64,000 bases of DNA from Octopus vulgaris (taxonomy: Eukaryota): positions 40,920,001 to 40,984,000 of the forward strand of contig OX597826.1 of NCBI GenBank assembly GCA_951406725.2, written 5' to 3'. Under the pieces are notes generated by a model, which made no database searches, was not told the DNA's origin, and saw only the letters and a list, made by a program, of their open reading frames with translations. This document shows positions 13,434 through 57,439 of this stretch, piece after piece (the stretch's first letter is position 1; each line of letters starts with the position of its first letter). The translations under genes were made by a program, and so were the position numbers.

Positions 13434-13684
13434 CAAGCAATACGGTGTGCAAAACTCACGAAGAAAACCCCCACTTCACCCACTGACATGACGTTGTTGG
13501 TCGAGTGATCATAGCTAAGTCCCTTCCTCAAATCACTTCTCGGAGTCTCCCTTAGGTCCCAGCTAGGTGTCTCCCTAAAATCACAGCTAGGTCTGTATAA
13601 AACCGATAGAGAAGTTTTGCGTGGGTGGGATGTAGATCATAAAGCCGATATTTACAAGTCATGTAAATGAGGGGAAGACTACCC

Positions 13685-13951
13685 GAAGAATTTATCAAAC
13701 ACCTGAGGAAGAATTTATCAAACACCCGAGGAAGAATTTATCAAACACCTGAGGAAGAATTTATCAAACACCCGAGGAAGAATTTATCAAACACCTGAGG
13801 AAGAATTTATCAAACACCCGAGGAAGAATTTATCAAACACATGAGGAAGAATTTATCAAACACCTGAGGAAGAATTTATCAAACACCTGAGGAAGAATTT
13901 ATCAAACACCCGAGGAAGAATTTATCAAACACCTGAGGAAGAATTTATCAA
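13685..13951. repeat. 23-bp minisatellite, ~11.5 copies
   Basis: Unit GAGGAAGAATTTATCAAACACC(T/C), directly abutting with no spacers. Confidence 0.95.
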
Positions 13952-14515
13952 GATACCAAATAGAAACACTCGGATGATTGGATGCTTCTTAGCTAAGTCA
14001 ACACGAGAAACGTTCAAGAGCACCTTTGGAGGTAAACCCAATCTCCATAGAACGAGAAGCAGGAGGGTAAATTCTGAGGTGCTCAGAGCCGACCTAGCTA
14101 CTGTTCTTTTTTTTTTTTTGTTCGTTTTTTTTTCCGTTTTTTTTTTTTTAATGCAGAAAACTTCTCTTAGCAACTTCTCTCAATGTTTTTAGTTGACTTG
14201 TGAACAAGAATTTTATTTCATTGAATCCAGTCCTGGTGAACACCCACCTCCTCTAATTCCCCCAACATCATTCCCATCTCTCCTTCCGCTTCTCTCTCTC
14301 TCTCTCCCTCTTCTCTCTCTTCCCCTCCCTCCCTCTCTCTCTCTCCCTCGCATGAACCCTGTTGTTCTGTTTTGTTTATACATAACTCTACCTTAATCTA
14401 GTCTCCCTGACAAAACCCTGCCAAACAGTTTTACTTAACCTTTGCTTCACTGTCATAAATCTCTGAAAATTCTAACGCAACCACCACCACCATCACTCTC
14501 CTAACATCAATACTA

Positions 14516-29290: not shown

Positions 29291-30205
29291 TGTTGTCAAA
29301 CGATTCTATATTGTTGAGACCTTTTGAGATTCGCCAAATATTATCGATCTTTTAAAATAACCCTGTTCCTTATATATAATTCGGGTTTCTTTTTGTTGAT
29401 ACCTTTTGCACTGTGTTTTTTTCCATCTTTCCTTTTCCTTTCCAGACCGTCCATATTGGTTATACCGTATTCCTTTTGTTCTTTTAACGATTCTTTAGAC
29501 CTTATACATTAACTTAATACCTAGCATAACTTTTCCAACCATTATAATTTTAGTTTTATGCTTTGAAAATATCTATTTTATACTTTATGTAAACACATCA
29601 CAGAAAGCAAATGTGAGGGAGGAGTGGAGGAGGATGGGTGGGTGGGTGGTGGTGGTGGTGGTGATGGAGGAGGAGGAGGAGGAGGATATTGATGATGAAT
29701 TAAAGCTAAGAAGATTAGTGATGTCTGTGTAGAGATAGGTCGAATGTTATCTATAAATCATTTCAGAAATTAAATCAATGTCCCTTTTTCTAAGTCGATC
29801 GAGTATCGAAGCACGTTTCTAATATAGATCAATAGACTGAGTTCAGAATTATGGGGCAGATAACGAACCTGGTTCAGACAGATTTAAAGGTTATCACATT
29901 TTTCCCCCAACAACTTCGTAGTTCTAACTTAATATGAACTGTGGCAGGGATGTCGGTGGTGGTGGTCGTGGTGGTGGTGGCGATGTTTGTGGTGATGGTG
30001 ATAGTAGCGTTGTCGTTGTTGTTGATTGTGATGATGATGATGATGATGATACTTTGTGTGTTGGTGACTATTAGTTTTGTTGTTCTGTTATCGTCATTCC
30101 ATATAAACAACGAGAGAGCCACTATATGGAGCGTCGGTATCTTCAGAATGGAGCTAAAGTAATTCTGAATAAAATGGCAGGAAAGTTTCAACTAAAACTT
30201 CTTTG

Positions 30206-30254
<49 letters not shown>

Positions 30255-30543
30255 AGCACACACACATGCTTTATTCGTTTCAGACATGCGGCTGCGGTCA
30301 TGCTGGAGTACCACCGTGATTTTACTCCTTTACTTATGATTCTCCTTTGGCTGATTATTTGACAACATAATGTAGCAGTCCTGGTTATAGTTTGCCGTAT
30401 AGCCAGCTGGAGACGATGTTTCCGGAGGCTAAATAACAGTAACAATCGTCCTAACGAGGGCTGCTACATTATGTTGGCAAGTAAACTTTATTCTAGAGTA
30501 CTGTTACTGAATGTCTCTCCTTCAGAAATTCAGAAATAATAAT

Positions 30544-32371: not shown

Positions 32372-32447
<76 letters not shown>

Positions 32448-32918
32448 CAAAGAAGTTTTAGTTGAAACTTTCCTGCCATTTTATTCAGAATTACTTTCGC
32501 CCCATTCTGAAGATACCGACGCTCCATATAGTGGCTCCCTCGTTGTTTATATGGAATGACGATAACAGAACAACAAAACTAATATTGTCATCATCATCAT
32601 CATCATCACAATCAACAACAACGACAACACTACTATCACCATCATCATAAACCTCGCCACCACCGCCGTCATCCCCCCACCCCCACCCCAAGATTATATT
32701 AAGTTAGAACTACGAAGTTGTTGGGGGCAAAATGTGCTAACCTTTAAAGGTTATCCTGTCTGAACCAGGTTCGATATCTGCCCCATAATTCTGAACTCAG
32801 TCTATTGATCTATATTACAAACGTGCTTCGATACTCGATCGACTTAGAAAAAGGGACATTGATTTAATTTCTGAAATGATTTATAGATAACACTCGACCT
32901 ATCTCTACACAGACATCA

Positions 32919-36876: not shown

Positions 36877-36946
36877 AGCCATCCGCTATGATCGACTGGT
36901 AGCCACTAGCTTTTTTTAATCTCCCTCTCTTTATTTTTTCTTGTTC

Positions 36947-36982
36947 CTTTCTGATGAAAAGCATAGGCTCGAAACGTAAAAG
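36947..36982 (+). ncRNA. Minimal type I hammerhead ribozyme motif
   Basis: cttt-CTGATGA-aaagc-atag-gctc-GAAACGTA-aaag: intact core, palindromic ACGT stem III, 4-bp stem I. Confidence 0.55.
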
Positions 36983-37089
36983 ACTTTCTCACCTTCCGAG
37001 CGTTAAGCTAACACACCTGTTTGTTGTTTATACACCTGTCTTCGTCTTTTTTTTTTTTTTTTTTTTGTAAATTCCAACTATATATATCC

Positions 37090-38445
37090 CGCCTGAAAAT
37101 ACAACTGCTGGAGATTGAAAAAAATCTGCAACTCTCCCATGAAAAAGAAAGAGCAGACAAAGAAGCTTAGGCTATAGACAATATAAAATCTAACCCCAGA
37201 GCCTTCTACAAGTTTGCCAAAGAAACAGCCTCAGTGCACAGCAGGGTGGGGCCACTTCTCGACAAAGATGGTTCACTCACAGGAAACCCAATGAGGATAA
37301 ATAAAATACTAAATTCGCAATTCAAAAGTGTTTTCACTCCACCCCTAGGACACTTGCAAGTCAGCAATCCAGCTCACTATTTTACTACTGCAGATATAAA
37401 AACAGTGGCAATGATGATTGATTATATCAGTATAAAAGAAGACGATGTAATAAGATGAGGCTATAAGGCTATAGATGAAATGAGTGGAGGCGCAATGGCC
37501 CAGTGGTTAGGGCAGCGGACTCGCGGTCATAGGATCGCGGTTTCGATTCCCAGACCGGGCGTTGTGAGTGTTTATTGAGCGAAAACACCTAAAAGCTCCA
37601 CGAGGCTCCGGCAGGGGATGGTGGTGATCCCTGCTGTAATCTTTCACCACAACTTTCTCTTACTTCCTGTTTCTGTTGTACCTGTATTTCAAAGGGCCGG
37701 CCTTGTCACTCTCTGTGTCACGCTGAATATCCCCGAAAACTACGTTAAGGGTACACGTGTCCGTGGAGTGCTCAGCCACTTACACGTTAATTTCACGAGC
37801 TGGCTGTTCCGTTGATTCGGATCAACCGGAACCCTCGTCGTCGTAACCAACGGAGTGCTTCCATAAGATGAAATGAACCCGAACTCAGCTACTGGCCCTT
37901 CTAAAAGCATGTAAGCGAGTCCTACCTATCAAGACCACTGCATTCCTTCTTTCAGAGCTTCTTTGTAACTGGCAAACTTCCAAGCAAGCTGAAGGAGGGT
38001 AAAATATGCCCTATTCATAAAGGCGGTAGCAGAGCAGAGGCCAAAAACTACAGACCTATCTCTCTGACCTCGTGCATCAGCAAAGTCATGGAACGAATAC
38101 TCAGAAGAAAACTAATCGCCTTCCTTGAGGAAAATGACTTGCTGACTGACACAACATGGTTTCCAACCAGGAAGAAGCTGCCTGACTCATCTCTTACAAC
38201 ACTATGACTGGGTGTTGAAATAGCTGCTCAACCGCTCAAATGTGGAAGTGATATATCTCGACATTGCAAAGGCCTTCGATAAAGACGATCATGGAATAAA
38301 ATGTTACAAACTGCGTGATCTCGGTATAGTCGGGAAATTGGGAGAATGGCTGCATGACTTTCTAAAGGATAGAAGTCAGGTGGTGGTAGCCAATGGACCA
38401 CTTCCAATGACATGCAAATAGTGAGCGGTGTTCCGCAAGGCACTT
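37090..38445 (+). mobile_element. CR1-group LINE reverse transcriptase fragment, decayed
   Basis: IKSNPRAFYKF, PIHKGGSRAEAKNYRPISLTSCISKVMER, IYLDIAKAFDK, VSGVPQGT; several stops and frameshifts; interrupted by a SINE. Confidence 0.9.
37484..37865 (+). mobile_element. Full-length tRNA-derived SINE (family A) nested in the CR1
   Basis: Head gtggaggcgcaatggcccagtggttagggcagcgg...ggtttcgattccc; 11-bp TSD agatgaaatga (37473-37483, 37866-37876). Confidence 0.93.
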
Positions 38446-42192: not shown

Positions 42193-42844
42193 AGAAAAAA
42201 AGTACTCTTTATCACAGATAAATAATATTCTATTTTGTTGAAGGGGAAACTCAGAGTAGTAAGAGCTTGGTTCAACTAAAACAAAATAAAATATATTTAT
42301 GCACAAGCATGGTTGTGCAGTAGAAAGTTTGCTTCCCAACCACATGGTTCCAGGTTCAGTTCCACTGTGTGTTACCTTGGATAAGTGTCTTCCACTCAAG
42401 CCCTGGTTCGATCAAAGCCTTTTGAGTGGACTTGGTGGATGGAAACTGAAACAATCCCATCATGTATATCTATTAGTATACATTTGTGCATGTTTGTCCC
42501 CCACCACTGCCTTAATCTGGTGTTGCTTTGTTTACATCCCCGTAGCTGCAGTTTGGCAAAATTGACTGTAGAATAAGCATCAAGCTTACAAATTCATAAT
42601 TGCTGGGGTCAGTTTGTTCTGTTAAACCCTTCAAGATGGTGCCCCAGCATGGCCACAATCTAATGACTGAAACAAATAAAAGAACATCTGTATTACGCAA
42701 TGTCTATTATTCACATGGTATTGGTCAGCATGAAACCACAGTAAAAAATATTTACTTAAGATGCATGGGATCAAATCTAGACCAAACATCTTAACAACAA
42801 AGCAAAGTTAGTCTTGTTTTTTCTCTTTTTTTCTTCTCCAGCTT

Positions 42845-43000
42845 ATGAAGAATTTCATGGCAGGATTGCGACTGGCATTTAATTTTGGTTTCTGGAACCC
42901 TTTACAATCAGAATGGACCTTTGCTGCTCAGTGTATCCAACCTGAAGAAAAAGAACGTATTTCTCAGTTCATGTTCCAAAAAGATGCCAAAGCTGCAATG
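42845..43000 (+). CDS. AASDHPPT: AASDHPPT (4'-phosphopantetheinyl transferase) coding exon 1
   Basis: MAGLRLAFNFGFWNPLQSEWTFAAQCIQPEEKERISQFMFQKDAKAAM matches the family N-terminus (IQPEEKERI.QF.F..DAKAAM); acceptor ttctccag ends 42841; donor gtaagt at 43001; phase 0. Confidence 0.95.
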
Positions 43001-43504
43001 GTAAGTCTTACTCTTTTACTTGTTTCAGTCATTTTGACTGCGGCCATGCTGGAGCACCACATCTTGGTAGAAATTTATTTCTAGACACGAAGTTTCCACA
43101 CCTGGAGTAGGGTAGGGGTGTGAATTATGATGGAGGAAGGTTGGCTGATTAGAGGTGAGTTGTGTTGTGGGGAGAGACTGAAGAGTGTTGGTGTGAGAGT
43201 ACTATTATTATTATTGTTGATAAAGCTGTAAGCTGACAGAATTGTTAACACACTGGAAAAAATGTTTAGTGATATTTCACCCGTCACTATGTTCTGAGTT
43301 CAAATTCCACTGAGGTCAACTTTGCCTTTCATCCTTTTGGGGTCGATAAAATAAGTGCCAGTTGAACACTGGGGTTGATGTAATCGACTCATCCCCACCT
43401 TCCCCAAGCTGCCCTTGTGGCAAAAATTTGAAATAATTATTATTGTAGAAATATTACATTTCTAAATCTCTGAGAAAGATTTATACTGTAGCAGCACGAT
43501 AAAG

Positions 43505-43884
43505 TGATGGTATGTTGTCAACTTAATGTGACAGTCTCATGAAAGAGACGAATGCTGCTGCTATTTAGTTCTAGGAAACACCGTTTCCTGTTGGCCATGA
43601 TACATTTTCTGTGTCCTTGTTTTCAGAGGGGGAGATAAGCACCTCCACTCAGCATCCAGAGACTAGTTTCAGAGTCATTGCTCATCATCAGTCTGGAGTA
43701 GCATGGCTTGCTAGCTGTCTGGATGCTGGCTTTGCTGGGTAGAGGTGCTTATCTCCCCCTTTAAAAATATAAGGATGCAGAAAATGTGTTATGGCCAACA
43801 GGAAACAGTGTTTCCTGGGGCTAAATAGCAGTAGCATTCTTCCCTTTCATGGGACTATCACATTAAGTTGACTGCATACCGTCA
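43505..43884. repeat. Long imperfect inverted repeat in AASDHPPT intron (arms 43505-43660 and 43718-43884)
   Basis: Arms align by eye along their whole length, with mostly transition differences and small indels. Confidence 0.95.
43655..43697 (-). ncRNA. Minimal type I hammerhead ribozyme motif, intact core
   Basis: tccaga-CTGATGA-t-gag-caatga-ctc-t-GAAAC-TA-GTC^tctgga: perfect 6-bp stem I, 3-bp stem II, palindromic ACTAGT stem III, GUC cleavage triplet. Confidence 0.75.
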
Positions 43885-45217
43885 TAATTATTATTGTTGT
43901 TCAGAAAGGTAACAAGCTGACAGAATCATTAGCACACTGGGCAAAATGCTTAGCAGCATTTCATCCGTCCTTACGTTTTGTCTGTCGTCCTTTCAGGGTT
44001 GATAAATTAAGTACCAGTAGAGTACTAGAGTCAATGTAATCAAATTTACCCCTATCCCCAAAATTCAGGTCTTGTACCTATAGTAGAAAGGATTATTATA
44101 GTTGTTTAGCCCCTAGGTCAGCCTAAGTGAGCAAACATTTAAGTAAAGACCATATAGACCCTCATACAATCCTAATTTTAAAATATGTACATAATGTCCT
44201 TCATCATCATCATCATCATTTAATGTCCGTTTTCCATGCTGGCATCGATTAGACGGTTTGACTGCAACTGGTATGCCAGAGAGCTGCACCAGGCTCCAGT
44301 CATCTGTTTTGGCTTGGTTTCTATAGCTGGATACCCTTCCTAACACCAACCACTTTACAGAAGGTACAGGGTGCACTTATGTGCCACCCCATTGGTGCTT
44401 TTTACATGCCACCAGCACTGACTATGACCACAATTCACTTAGCTGGACATGTCTTCCCATGCACAGCAAATCGCCAGAACCCTCAGTCATTTGTGTCATT
44501 AATGATGGCTAAAAGGGTTCATAACAGGTTTGGCATCCAGTTATGCCTCAGAAAAACCATCCCGTCCATGTCAGCTTGGGAGGTCTTAAAATGATGATGT
44601 AATATATACAGAGAGAGACAGACAGACAGCAGACAACCTGAATAAATTCACACCACCAGAGGTTAGTAATACTGTGAATCATAAGTATATTGAATTCTAA
44701 TAACTGGTTACTTTATGTGTTTGTGTGTGTGTATTATTCACCTACTTTTAAGTATATAACCACCTTTGTCACATCACCATAGACAGTCTTTGGATTTACT
44801 TTTGCCATATTCCTGGCACGCAAATCTGGTTTATTGCCCTTCTGGGTCTTTTGTAATTGCAGTTGAAGCTCATAAAGTAAAAACAAGAATAATAAATTTC
44901 TATGAATACAAAAATTAATGGAACTCTGAGCTTAGTATGATGAAATACATTAAATTGTTACATGGTCACATGATCAGCTAAAAAAAAGGAGCCAAATCTC
45001 CTTCACATCACACACTTCCACCTAAAAAAAATGAAAGCACCTATTGCATAATGTAGTCCTATACACGCAATGGATGAGATGGTCGAGGATGGATCACCTT
45101 TGATCATAAGCCAGAGTCAGGGCTGACAAGGGATCAAACTATAAAATATTTGCCAATTAACTTATCAATGACATAACTATTCATCCTTTCTTTCTTTGTC
45201 TTTCTCTAATTTTCTAG

Positions 45218-45446
45218 GCTGGTCGTTTGTTAATCCGTAAATCTCTGAGTAGTTTACTGCAAGTCCCCTACTCCTCATTGGTACTAAGCCGGACTGACAA
45301 AGGAAAGCCATATCTATCATCTGTAGGCAATGCTCTCAGCAATACTTCACCCCATTTCAATATTGCCCACCATGGCAATTTCACTGTCTTAGCTACCCAC
45401 CCAAATGTTGACATTGGGGTAGACGTCATGAAAGTAGAACAACCAA
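45218..45446 (+). CDS. AASDHPPT: AASDHPPT coding exon 2
   Basis: AGRLLIRK...RTDKGKPYL...FNIAHHGNFTVLA...IGVDVMK; acceptor tttctag; donor gtaggt at 45447 gives phase 1, matching the next exon. Confidence 0.93.
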
Positions 45447-55029: not shown

Positions 55030-57439
55030 TTGAAGAGAGGGTTCTTTAATCAATTCTATTGCATAATTTTTGTCTTAAAGTGACTCTAATTACAGGTAAA
55101 TCCAGATAAACTGAGCAAAATGTAAAAATATTTAAATTTTGTTTAAACATTACCATAGAAAATGAGTCCTCTGCTAATATTTAATTGAGGTATGCAACAA
55201 AATTCTGATATAGAAGAATTGTGCACATCACTAGATTATCAGTTGAATTTAATGCACAGAAGAACAGGTGTATCATAAATGTAAAATAAACTGAAATACT
55301 GGAATTTGTTTTTGAAGAAAACTAGAAAATTAAATATACTCACACACATACATAAATACACAGGAACATATATAATAAAGATTTACAATAGAAATAGTCA
55401 AAACTTATCACTCAGCTTACAGGCAAATTAAAATTACAGGTAAATTACAATAAAAAGTTAAATTTGAAAAATATTTATACAATCTAATTATACATATATA
55501 CAAACAATATTTACACTATATCTCTATCATGGAAAGTTGTAAAACATCCCACTCTACATACTGCAACCTTGCAGAATGCACATTGGAAAGACGTTTCAAC
55601 TGGCCTTCCAATGGGTGTTTTCCTTTGTTGTTGTAGACATTCACGGCACTGCCTTTTGCGACCCACGATTTTTTCTAATTTATGTAGATCGGCTGAAGTC
55701 AGAGGAATATCTCTCTGTCAGGCTTTGCTTTTCTTTCCTGCAGTTATTTTTTGGGAGGAATAACCTGCCTTCAACTGCGTTGCTACATCTGCTCGGAACT
55801 GCAGATGGTCGCACCGCTTGCGAGCCCCTCCTGATTTGGTATATAATATATATGCATTTACAATGCTCATGTTTACTATATACCAAACCAGGTATCGCCA
55901 CCATTTATTATCCGGTCTACCAACCGGATAATAACTCATCCTCTGCTTCAGTCGATCTACACCACCCCTGTACCTGTTATAATCAAGGTTCACAAAGGGG
56001 GTACCATTTTCATCTACACGTGGTTGTGCACTGGTAGATAGAAAATTTACCTGTCTCTTATTTCTGTATGCGGTCGCTAGCAGATTTCCTTTCTGCCGTT
56101 GGATTATTTCACCTTTTTTTTTTAATTTTGCTTTTTTTATATCCAACGGCAGCCCTTTTCTACTAGCAATAACTGTAGCACACGTATACGTTGCAACAGC
56201 TTCTAAATCCACCGCAAGTTTGACCGAACTGAAAAATCGGTCAAAAAATAATATACGGCCCTGGTTTTGGTATGGAAGAGATAAATTCCAGACCACATCG
56301 TACCCTAGGCCGTGCTGACTAACATTGTCTCTTTTCCCTGTACAGAAGCTAAACCCACAGCAGTACCCAGTATCTGCTTCACAAATTTTCCAAACTTTGA
56401 TCCCATTTATGGACTTTCCTGGCATATACTGTCGGAAGCGTACCCCTTCTTTATACTCCATCTTGCCCTCATCGACGGATAAGTATCTCCCGGGGTTGTA
56501 AAATGTTCTATATGCATTTTGAACGCAGTCAATGAGGGGTCTTATTTTAAAAAAGGGATCAAAGTTTGGTTCTCCACGTACTGGGGTACTGCTCGTGTCC
56601 CTCACATGTAAATATTGGTTCAGTTTCACAAATCGTATTTCAGTCATAATACTGGACACATACTCATCACGTAAAAGTTCCAGATCGCTCCAGTAATTTG
56701 TAATCCTGGGTAACTGTCTTATACCAATTATTATATTTATTGCAAAAAATGCCCGTATTTCATCCACGGTTGTAGGAAACCACGAGCTATCTTTTTTTCC
56801 AGCTTGTTTACATTCTGCGTAACGATTTGTTTCCGCAGTGATTGCTTCAAACAAGCATTCTGGAAAAAATAAATAGAAAAAGTCTAATGGTTTCGCTTCC
56901 TGAGAAAGACTATGGGTAGACCCTGTCTCCTCAGAAAAATTGTTAATAAAAACTTCTTTTAACTCTTTACTCCATTCTGGTGTAAAATCATCCTCGCTGT
57001 CTACGTCACTGCCTTCAGTTTCTTCAGAATCGCTTTCTGTTTCATATTCAGAAATATCCGATTCATTTTCGTCCACCACGTGCTCTTGCACCTCATTCAA
57101 TATTTCACTCGATATCTCCATATCTTCTGTTGAAAAGCTTTCAAATTCAGAATCACAGCTTGATGGCATGAAACTCCTCTCCATTTTCAAAGTTGAAAAA
57201 AATTAACGCCGGAAAAATCTTCTAAAATTCAGTGAGTTCAAATATCACGCCAAACAATGTCGGATATAATAACAGCTGATAGAAAAGTATAATCACGGGT
57301 TTTAACGAATGTACCAACGAGATTTGGGTTCAAATTTACATTTAAATAACAATGGGTGCTCTCGGTCGGCTACGGCCGGGTTGATCTTATGAACCGAAAA
57401 ATTGTTTCGGTCGGTTACAGCCATTTAGTAACGAAAGGG
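55030..57439 (-). mobile_element. piggyBac element; 5' terminus intact, 3' terminus not found
   Basis: TTAA (57440-57443) followed on the minus strand by CCCTTTCGTTAC; subterminal direct repeat tcggtcgg(c/t)tac(g/a)gcc near 57362 and 57407; the left boundary is approximate. Confidence 0.85.
55511..57184 (-). CDS. piggyBac (PGBD4-like) transposase: 488 aa to TGA, then a 68-aa in-frame Cys-rich domain
   Basis: Acidic N-terminus; catalytic LSVDE, FFDRFFSS and GGVD motifs; one TGA at 55718-55720, after which the frame continues QRDIPL...CRECLQ...CAFCKVAVCRVGCFTTFH to TAA at 55511-55513. Confidence 0.9.

Follow-up and report, generated by a model that had tools for sequence, protein, structure and literature searches.

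The window, by which we mean the whole 64,000-nucleotide stretch of Octopus vulgaris DNA that was analysed, carries a plus-strand AASDHPPT gene. A coding exon at 42839..43000 (Pfam AASDHPPT_N positions 3 to 38, E 1e-12; further backed by a human structure match, tblastn of P0002, and a GT donor) is followed by the next exon at 45218..45445 (AASDHPPT_N positions 39 to 99; tblastn), whose product shares 100% and 97% identity with Octopus-named proteins and 81% with Argonauta. The intron between them, 43001-45217, holds a palindromic insert with a hammerhead ribozyme motif on the minus strand. The plus-strand exons end at 43000 and resume at 45218, and the hammerhead is antisense to AASDHPPT, as an earlier note on this DNA had claimed.

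The insert measures 437 bp (~440 bp), from 43447 to 43883, and is bounded by two identical copies of an ATT-rich 14-bp direct repeat (left copy, 43433..43446; right copy, 43884..43897) that is likely a target-site duplication. When both strands of the window were scanned, this 14-bp sequence occurred exactly twice, at these two places. Against a target duplication, the surroundings are low-complexity ATT sequence with a dispersed repeat on either side. The flanking repeats lie on the plus strand at 43205..43445 (17 further matches in the window) and at 43888..44100 (the same kind, by repeat comparison within the window); we take both to be SINE-like. The earlier note had set the limits at 43505..43884, which is too narrow for the insert, because a tail reaches to 43447 with the 14-bp duplication outside it.

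The insert consists of four parts. The first is a one-sided 3' tail of 59 nt on the minus strand (43447..43505), which is missing from the inverted arm and for which nothing on the right side provides a pairing partner. It is followed by the left arm (43506..43660, 155 nt, minus strand), which the arm alignment identifies as a direct copy of sequence downstream of the cut site. Next comes a 57-nt loop (43661..43717, minus strand) that contains the 5' strand of an extended stem I and the hammerhead core, as judged by motif scan, fold, and family variation. The last part is the right arm (43718..43883, 166 nt, plus strand), an inverted, 5'-truncated, and tail-less copy whose start falls between +1 and +3 relative to the cut. 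Aligned with each other, the arms match by Watson-Crick pairing in 134 columns; of the remaining columns, 19 are transitions, 2 are transversions, and 11 are gaps. Compared with the right arm, the left arm has lost 9 nt after position 43648 and another 2 nt after 43617. The arms thus differ by ~14%, which indicates that the palindrome is not an assembly fold-back. Folding z-scores are -23 for the minus strand and -28 for the plus strand, and 0 of 100 shuffles equal the observed fold on either strand. The palindrome that had been proposed, with arms of ~155 to 165 bp around a 57-nt spacer, is therefore real.

The hammerhead in the loop

Read along the minus strand, the loop contains stem I, CTGATGA (43691-43685), stem II, GAAAC (43670-43666), TA, and GTC (43663-43661), which places the cut site between 43661 and 43660. 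Stem I has 6 bp and helix III has only 2 bp, around the palindrome ACTAGT. All the parts by which a type I hammerhead is recognized (CUGAnGA, GAAA, and an NUH triplet, with helices I to III) are present, and a descriptor of core plus stems finds 1 match in the window, whereas 100 shuffles yield 0.02 matches per window on average. The minus-strand hammerhead and the core that had been ascribed to it are thus genuine. The Rfam hammerhead models give zero matches to the loop motif, either at the gathering threshold or at E values up to 10. Because they also miss a motif at 36951 (see below), we conclude that these models are insensitive to hammerheads of such forms.

The base of stem II is unusual. 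The G10.1-C11.1 pair is absent from its place directly before G12, where there is a U-U or an extra U, and the 5' partner at this position varies among U, C, and A within the family (43684). In the family, the usual G-C that closes stem II is seemingly replaced by this variable U/C/A facing a constant U (43671/43684), and this closure is possibly a hammerhead variant.

Stem I extends well beyond its 6 bp when the loop strand is paired with the right-arm sequence. The duplex of the loop strand with the right-arm version of the sequence has an energy of -26.7 kcal/mol, versus -15.8 kcal/mol with the left-arm version, and with the right-arm version the predicted structure is a helix of 6 bp that is separated by an internal loop from a long outer helix. 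The outer stem I is complete with 9 nt that the right arm retains, and the 9-nt deletion in the left arm removes it; one family contig has 9 extra letters at 43648. The combination of a 6-bp helix, an internal loop, a long outer helix, and a 2-bp helix III matches the canonical animal type I form as it is described in PMC4209133, and this form occurs in the non-LTR retrozymes treated in PMC7229834 and PMC7761336. Based on this match, the motif is a canonical animal type I hammerhead of the non-LTR retrozyme kind and not, as had been supposed, a minimal one. With the minimal hammerheads of Penelope-like elements, as PMC4209133 presents them, it shares the core, a variable nucleotide after position 9, a palindromic helix III, and the expectation of cleavage as a dimer. 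In contrast, the minimal form described there has a long helix II and a short helix I, whereas in the octopus motif stem II is short, the outer part of stem I is long, and helix III has 2 bp.

We predict that the ribozyme at 43661-43717 is inactive. In predicted folds, the stem I pairs have probabilities of 0.12 to 0.39 without the upstream arm and of at most 0.001 with it, which bears out the suggestion that the long hairpin and stem I compete for the same strand. According to the accounts in PMC4209133, PMC6466107, and PMC6765202, a hammerhead with a short palindromic helix III needs a dimer for cleavage. When two copies of the ribozyme are cofolded, the minimum-energy structure is one other than the dimer fold; the helix III duplex alone amounts to -6.2 kcal/mol. 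The prediction of inactivity is based on the antisense position relative to the host gene, the sequestered stem I, the lost outer stem, and the lack of a nearby second copy with which to form a dimer. Taken by itself, the insert at 43447-43883 is predicted to be a dead copy.

The dispersed family and a sister insertion

Contigs from four sequencing runs, two of DNA and two presumed to be of RNA, were aligned at 80% likeness to 43400-43945. The DNA runs, from two organisms, placed 5155 and 5672 contigs and the presumed RNA runs 162 and 488, counts that include contigs on the flanking repeats and whose summed depth does not equal copy number. Every bin of the tail, the arms, and the core is deeply covered. 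Contigs of the family cross the tail and begin near 43446, which shows that the tail is part of the element. At the other side, 33 contigs from one run diverge from the window behind 43719, where they share ~25 letters that are followed by TA repeats. Because contigs part from the window at this point, the normal element is colinear and the hairpin is not the normal form of the family. The positions of the loose ends, 43719 and 43446, lead us to infer a unit of ~310 nt that is bounded by a (TA)n end and the end of the tail. With 3 mismatches allowed, a 14-nt motif from the upstream part of the family matches the window twice, which is the chance level (mean, 2.12).

Among the 40 of 99 variant entries listed, only two positions in the loop vary, 43684 and 43676 (the latter in loop II). 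At 43684, the nucleotide after A9, the DNA runs have C in 26 to 45% and A in 8%, read on the ribozyme strand. The catalytic core therefore looks conserved in the family, as far as the listed entries and the 80% filter allow. Five sites that vary in the family carry the same variant in both arms (32 of the 40 listed entries were used), which suggests that the arms come from one template or subfamily.

The two strands of evidence, from the locus and from the contigs, bear on the idea that what moves or functions is the hairpin together with its ribozyme, either as a rod-like RNA or as a switch in which the arm governs cleavage. The predicted closing of stem I by the arm fits this idea, as does a loop that is almost exactly the 5' half of the ribozyme. 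However, family contigs stop short of crossing the junction (of the 32 pieces listed, out of 11,698, none spans that of this locus), the tail is one-sided, the 9-nt loss takes away the outer stem I, and 14 of the 19 transitions are A-C mismatches on the ribozyme strand, which is the wrong direction for a rod that is being kept. We regard this reading as largely refuted and very improbable. The related proposal of a hairpin-ribozyme retroelement as the form of the family fails for similar reasons: the contigs diverge at 43719, the other joints are scattered, and a sister copy inverts far from the cut.

This sister insertion, a member of a diverged subfamily, lies at 30359..30537 on the plus strand. 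It has a 24-bp inverted arm (22 of 24 positions), a 74-nt spacer, and a 57-nt tail (30481-30537) that is the counterpart of the 59-nt tail 43447..43505; it ends in ATT/TA and is without a hammerhead. Since its inversion is far from any ribozyme, the family makes head-to-head inversions regardless of the cut. In the insert of the AASDHPPT intron, the tail (43447-43484) and the end of the arm (43516-43548) contain small hairpins, and those at the arm end are also present in the 30-kb copy, with two double changes. When three small hairpins close to the 3' end are compared, 92% of cells are paired and there are 2 double changes; with 4 rows this is not significant, as 33 and 89 of 500 shuffles attain the observed pairing and double-change values, respectively.

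A MITE or foldback DNA transposon, whose hammerhead-like loop would have arisen by chance, could account for the long inverted arms, and the lack of an Rfam hammerhead match and the presence of a DDE transposase open reading frame in the window are in line with it. Yet the chance rate of the descriptor is 0.02 per window, an extended stem I accompanies a palindromic helix III, a 14-bp duplication is present, and the tail is asymmetric. Fixed symmetric terminal inverted repeats are absent from the contigs and the 30-kb copy, which instead show a one-sided tail and variable junctions, and dispersed copies of the family end their arms at differing places. The family data refute a DNA transposon, which we consider scarcely credible.

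An open reading frame with reverse transcriptase plus GIY-YIG is present neither in the insert nor among 52 of the 124 listed open reading frames at 36000-64000. There are no head-to-tail tandem arrays of the family within the window, and one tandem-type (go-back) joint, 43715 to 43446, is found among 12 of 34 joint entries listed. Exact-pattern scans return 0 stretches in metagenome contigs, viral contigs, and prokaryote genomes. The family consists either of solo terminal repeats left by a Penelope-like element or of a dispersed, ~310-nt retrozyme that descends from such an element.

As is usual for a retrozyme, the family has a canonical type I hammerhead in a non-coding unit of 150 to 450 nt, the unit length being estimated from the loose ends. 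Like the metazoan non-LTR retrozymes of coral, mussel, and axolotl (as presented in PMC7229834) and of vertebrates (as presented in bioRxiv 10.64898/2026.07.22.740005), it combines a non-coding unit of an estimated ~310 nt, high copy number, and a proposed dependence on Penelope-like elements with a type I hammerhead that has a 6-bp helix I, an internal loop, an outer stem, and a short palindromic helix III. Unlike these retrozymes, the octopus copies are dispersed and are truncated or inverted, with one tandem-type joint among the entries listed, and the base of stem II is atypical in its variable nucleotide after A9 and extra U before GAAA. The literature found on hammerheads with octopus or cephalopods contains no cephalopod retrozyme family, although the bioRxiv supplements may list some. 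Together with searches on inverted Penelope junctions (with few subscription papers covered), this indicates that the family and its cut register appear unreported.

Origin of the inverted junction

We think it probable that the locus goes back to one old insertion of a hammerhead repeat with many copies, in which a Penelope-like reverse transcriptase-endonuclease joined two 5'-truncated copies head to head and whose ribozyme is predicted to be inactive. Three marks of Penelope-like insertion are found: an inverted, 5'-truncated head-to-head copy (in two cases), a one-sided tail (59 and 57 nt), and an AT/ATT-rich duplication. In the accounts given in PMC3846280 and PMC8557442, the Penelope-like unit carries a pLTR that is inverted and shortened at its 5' side, and it shows a one-sided tail, head-to-head junctions, and a duplication of 8 to 10 bp. 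The connection that had been made, from the sequence alone, with Penelope-like elements and the inverted structures at their ends is upheld by the inverted shorter copy, the tail, the ATT-rich 14-bp duplication, and the sister case. As described in PMC13282606, octopus carries Penelope-like elements, and bioRxiv 10.64898/2026.07.22.740005 argues that animal retrozymes derive from Penelope-like terminal repeats.

The sequence of events that we infer at 43447-43883 is one in which the RNA of the element would have been copied twice, in opposite directions, by a Penelope-like reverse transcriptase-endonuclease. Staggered nicks at ATT would open the target. A first cDNA, begun at an outer start site, would include the tail and pass the ribozyme to -57, and a second, begun at an inner start site, would lack the tail and halt at +1 to +3. 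Short homology would then join the two cDNA ends head to head, after which each arm may have decayed by ~7%. For one element in vitro, PMC11167929 describes nicking at ATT with extension of both strands and a tail that equals the gap between two internal reverse transcriptase starts. The octopus insert is in keeping with each of these published features.

The closest known systems are the head-to-head pLTR insertions of endonuclease-positive Penelope-like elements, as shown for Adineta vaga Pen2a (PMC3846280), in Fig. 2 of PMC8557442, and for Anolis PAc (PMC11167929). These share with the octopus insert a shorter copy that lies inverted on the 5' side, a one-sided tail, a target duplication, an ATT-rich target, and a hammerhead ~160 to 170 nt upstream of the inner 3' end. 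The octopus insert differs in having no open reading frame between the repeats and in its canonical hammerhead. Also against the Penelope-like fit are the lack of an autonomous partner among the open reading frames scanned, the lack of a bridge over the junction of this locus among the 32 pieces listed, the tail of 57 to 59 nt versus the published 30 to 40 nt, the duplication of 14 bp versus the published 8 to 10 bp, and a ribozyme of the retrozyme type that is accompanied by a single tandem-type joint among the 12 of 34 entries listed. The locus is real but largely ordinary, since its parts and architecture are known.

The earlier note held that the arm begins exactly at the predicted cut. 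The inner end of the arm does pair with 43660, but the letters 43718-43719 suit either side of the junction, so that the start is +1 to +3 and not exact. Twin copying by a Penelope-like enzyme does not demand an exact register, and we also weighed a variant that is compatible with it and differs in one step, namely that the inverted arm was copied off self-cleaved RNA and ran off its 5' end, which would make the junction a fossil of cleavage in the germ line. Nine joints of the head-to-head type, from lists of 15 of 93 and 12 of 34 entries, fall at +1, +6, +10, +85, +91, +100, +101, +101, and +129. Three of these nine listed joints are within 10 nt of the cut (P of ~0.02 to 0.04 under a uniform model), and one joint, 43524 to 43718 with GTC between, is present in both DNA runs. 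Along with the start at +1 to +3 and a family core that looks conserved, these observations favor copying from cleaved RNA, and the clustering is a weak hint in that direction.

Against it, the other six listed joints lie at +85 to +129 and the 30-kb copy breaks elsewhere. The right arm of the reference ends at +1, and joints slightly upstream would be pushed to this edge, which inflates the count near the cut. Moreover, the upstream letters of the family repeat TC (+1/+2) and GATGC (+5 to +9). Because GATGC is repeated upstream, a template switch by short homology can land at the cut without cleavage, and microhomology explains the register as well as cleavage does. There is no peak of loose ends at the cut among 24 of 840 entries listed, and for PAc, PMC11167929 reports that uncleaved RNA is the chief template and that no reads begin at the cut. 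A run-off from self-cleaved RNA is thus possible at this junction, though we judge it unlikely. A recurring register that seemed to arise from opposite-strand joints (43655/43724, 43657/43726, and 43661/43718) was rejected, as these are expected of a colinear copy aligned to a left arm that lacks 9 nt.

A more far-reaching reading, which we hold to be distinctly doubtful, is that an octopus retrozyme family with an atypical canonical hammerhead moves on Penelope-like machinery and that its junctions pile up at the cut because self-cleaved RNA is one of the two templates. If this were true, the junctions would be a genomic record of ribozyme cutting in vivo, retrozyme mobility would be tied directly to twin priming of the Penelope type, and thousands of intronic fold-backs would be a source of octopus editing substrates. 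The role of the hammerhead in Penelope-like elements is open, and the mobilizer of animal retrozymes has so far only been inferred. Here one and the same molluscan family unites a ribozyme of the retrozyme type with insertion marks of the Penelope type, which supports such a link, and the family offers thousands of junctions with which to ask whether cleaved RNA templates insertion.

The stem in the host transcript

Because the ribozyme is on the minus strand and the gene on the plus strand, AASDHPPT pre-mRNA would not be cut. The long double-stranded stem that had been foreseen in this pre-mRNA is supported by the fold, which predicts unbroken helices of 35 and 32 bp in the plus-strand RNA of the hairpin. 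The 19 transitions between the arms divide into 14 that are G:U on the plus strand and 5 that are G:U on the minus strand. Most arm differences are thus G:U compatible on the sense strand, as had been remarked, but the excess is marginal (14:5, P = 0.064, or 0.13 against the 12:12 control; with wider limits 15:5, P = 0.041), and of the 12 of the 14 sites that family letters polarize, 8 are C>T and 4 are A>G on the plus strand, which weakens the argument that had been built on the G:U sites for an ADAR substrate. The control ratio is 12:12 in 4 neighboring intronic repeat copies and 51:47 in 13 others, some of which may sit in the first intron of the gene. Two candidate causes were rejected: a retrocopy of edited RNA, as only 4 of 12 polarized sites are A>G, and a transcription-linked mutation bias, which is unseen in either set of repeats.

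An excess on the sense strand would also be expected if the host had kept the intronic stem by selection, for control of AASDHPPT editing or splicing. The 14:5 ratio points that way, and the 12:12 ratio of neighboring repeats together with the small strand skew of the introns means that a general mutational asymmetry is not evident. In addition, octopus hyper-edits long stems strongly, as reported in PMC5625713. Yet the excess was spotted post hoc and has a P value of 0.064, or 0.13 against the control, each arm decays as a neutral copy would, and the common variants that are paired are family variants rather than local compensations. We find host selection improbable; chance is enough to explain the excess, which the insertion of twin copies by a Penelope-like enzyme does not demand.

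The plus-strand RNA of the arms holds 82 adenosines. By analogy with other octopus inverted repeats, for which PMC5625713 reports very high hyper-editing of long stems, the insert in AASDHPPT pre-mRNA would likely be edited as a bystander, which would be nothing out of the ordinary. Family-wide, the ratio of A>G to T>C places is 13:12 and 17:11 in contigs from the presumed RNA runs, versus 10:14 and 12:10 in those from DNA. As a self-contained pre-mRNA stem of >150 bp, the hairpin resembles the ADAR-hyper-edited palindromic repeats (Xenopus Harbinger and octopus inverted repeats) treated in PMC5625713; unlike Xenopus Harbinger, it is a retroelement inversion and not a DNA transposon.

Several other features of the window were observed. 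A 198-nt inverted repeat (30069-30266 and 32387-32584, 97% complementary) holds the likely first AASDHPPT coding exon (30126-30182) plus a mirror copy of it, and would form a near-perfect stem spanning the 5' end of AASDHPPT. On the plus strand at 36946-36992, a loose scan finds another hammerhead-like motif, of the minimal kind (a stem I of 4 bp, CTGATGA, stem II, and GAAACGTA), which is the motif at 36951 that Rfam also leaves unmatched. The repeat that contains it is flanked by (TG)n and (TA)n, as is typical of the terminal repeats of Penelope-like elements. About 1 kb downstream, a weak reverse transcriptase match on the plus strand (37905-38204; E 0.003, below the cut-off) is probably a LINE fragment. 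The transposase frame, presumably piggyBac-like, is a 494-amino-acid open frame on the minus strand at 55718-57202 with a DDE_Tnp_1_7 domain (E 1e-75), and a minisatellite with a 23-bp period occupies 13639-14020.
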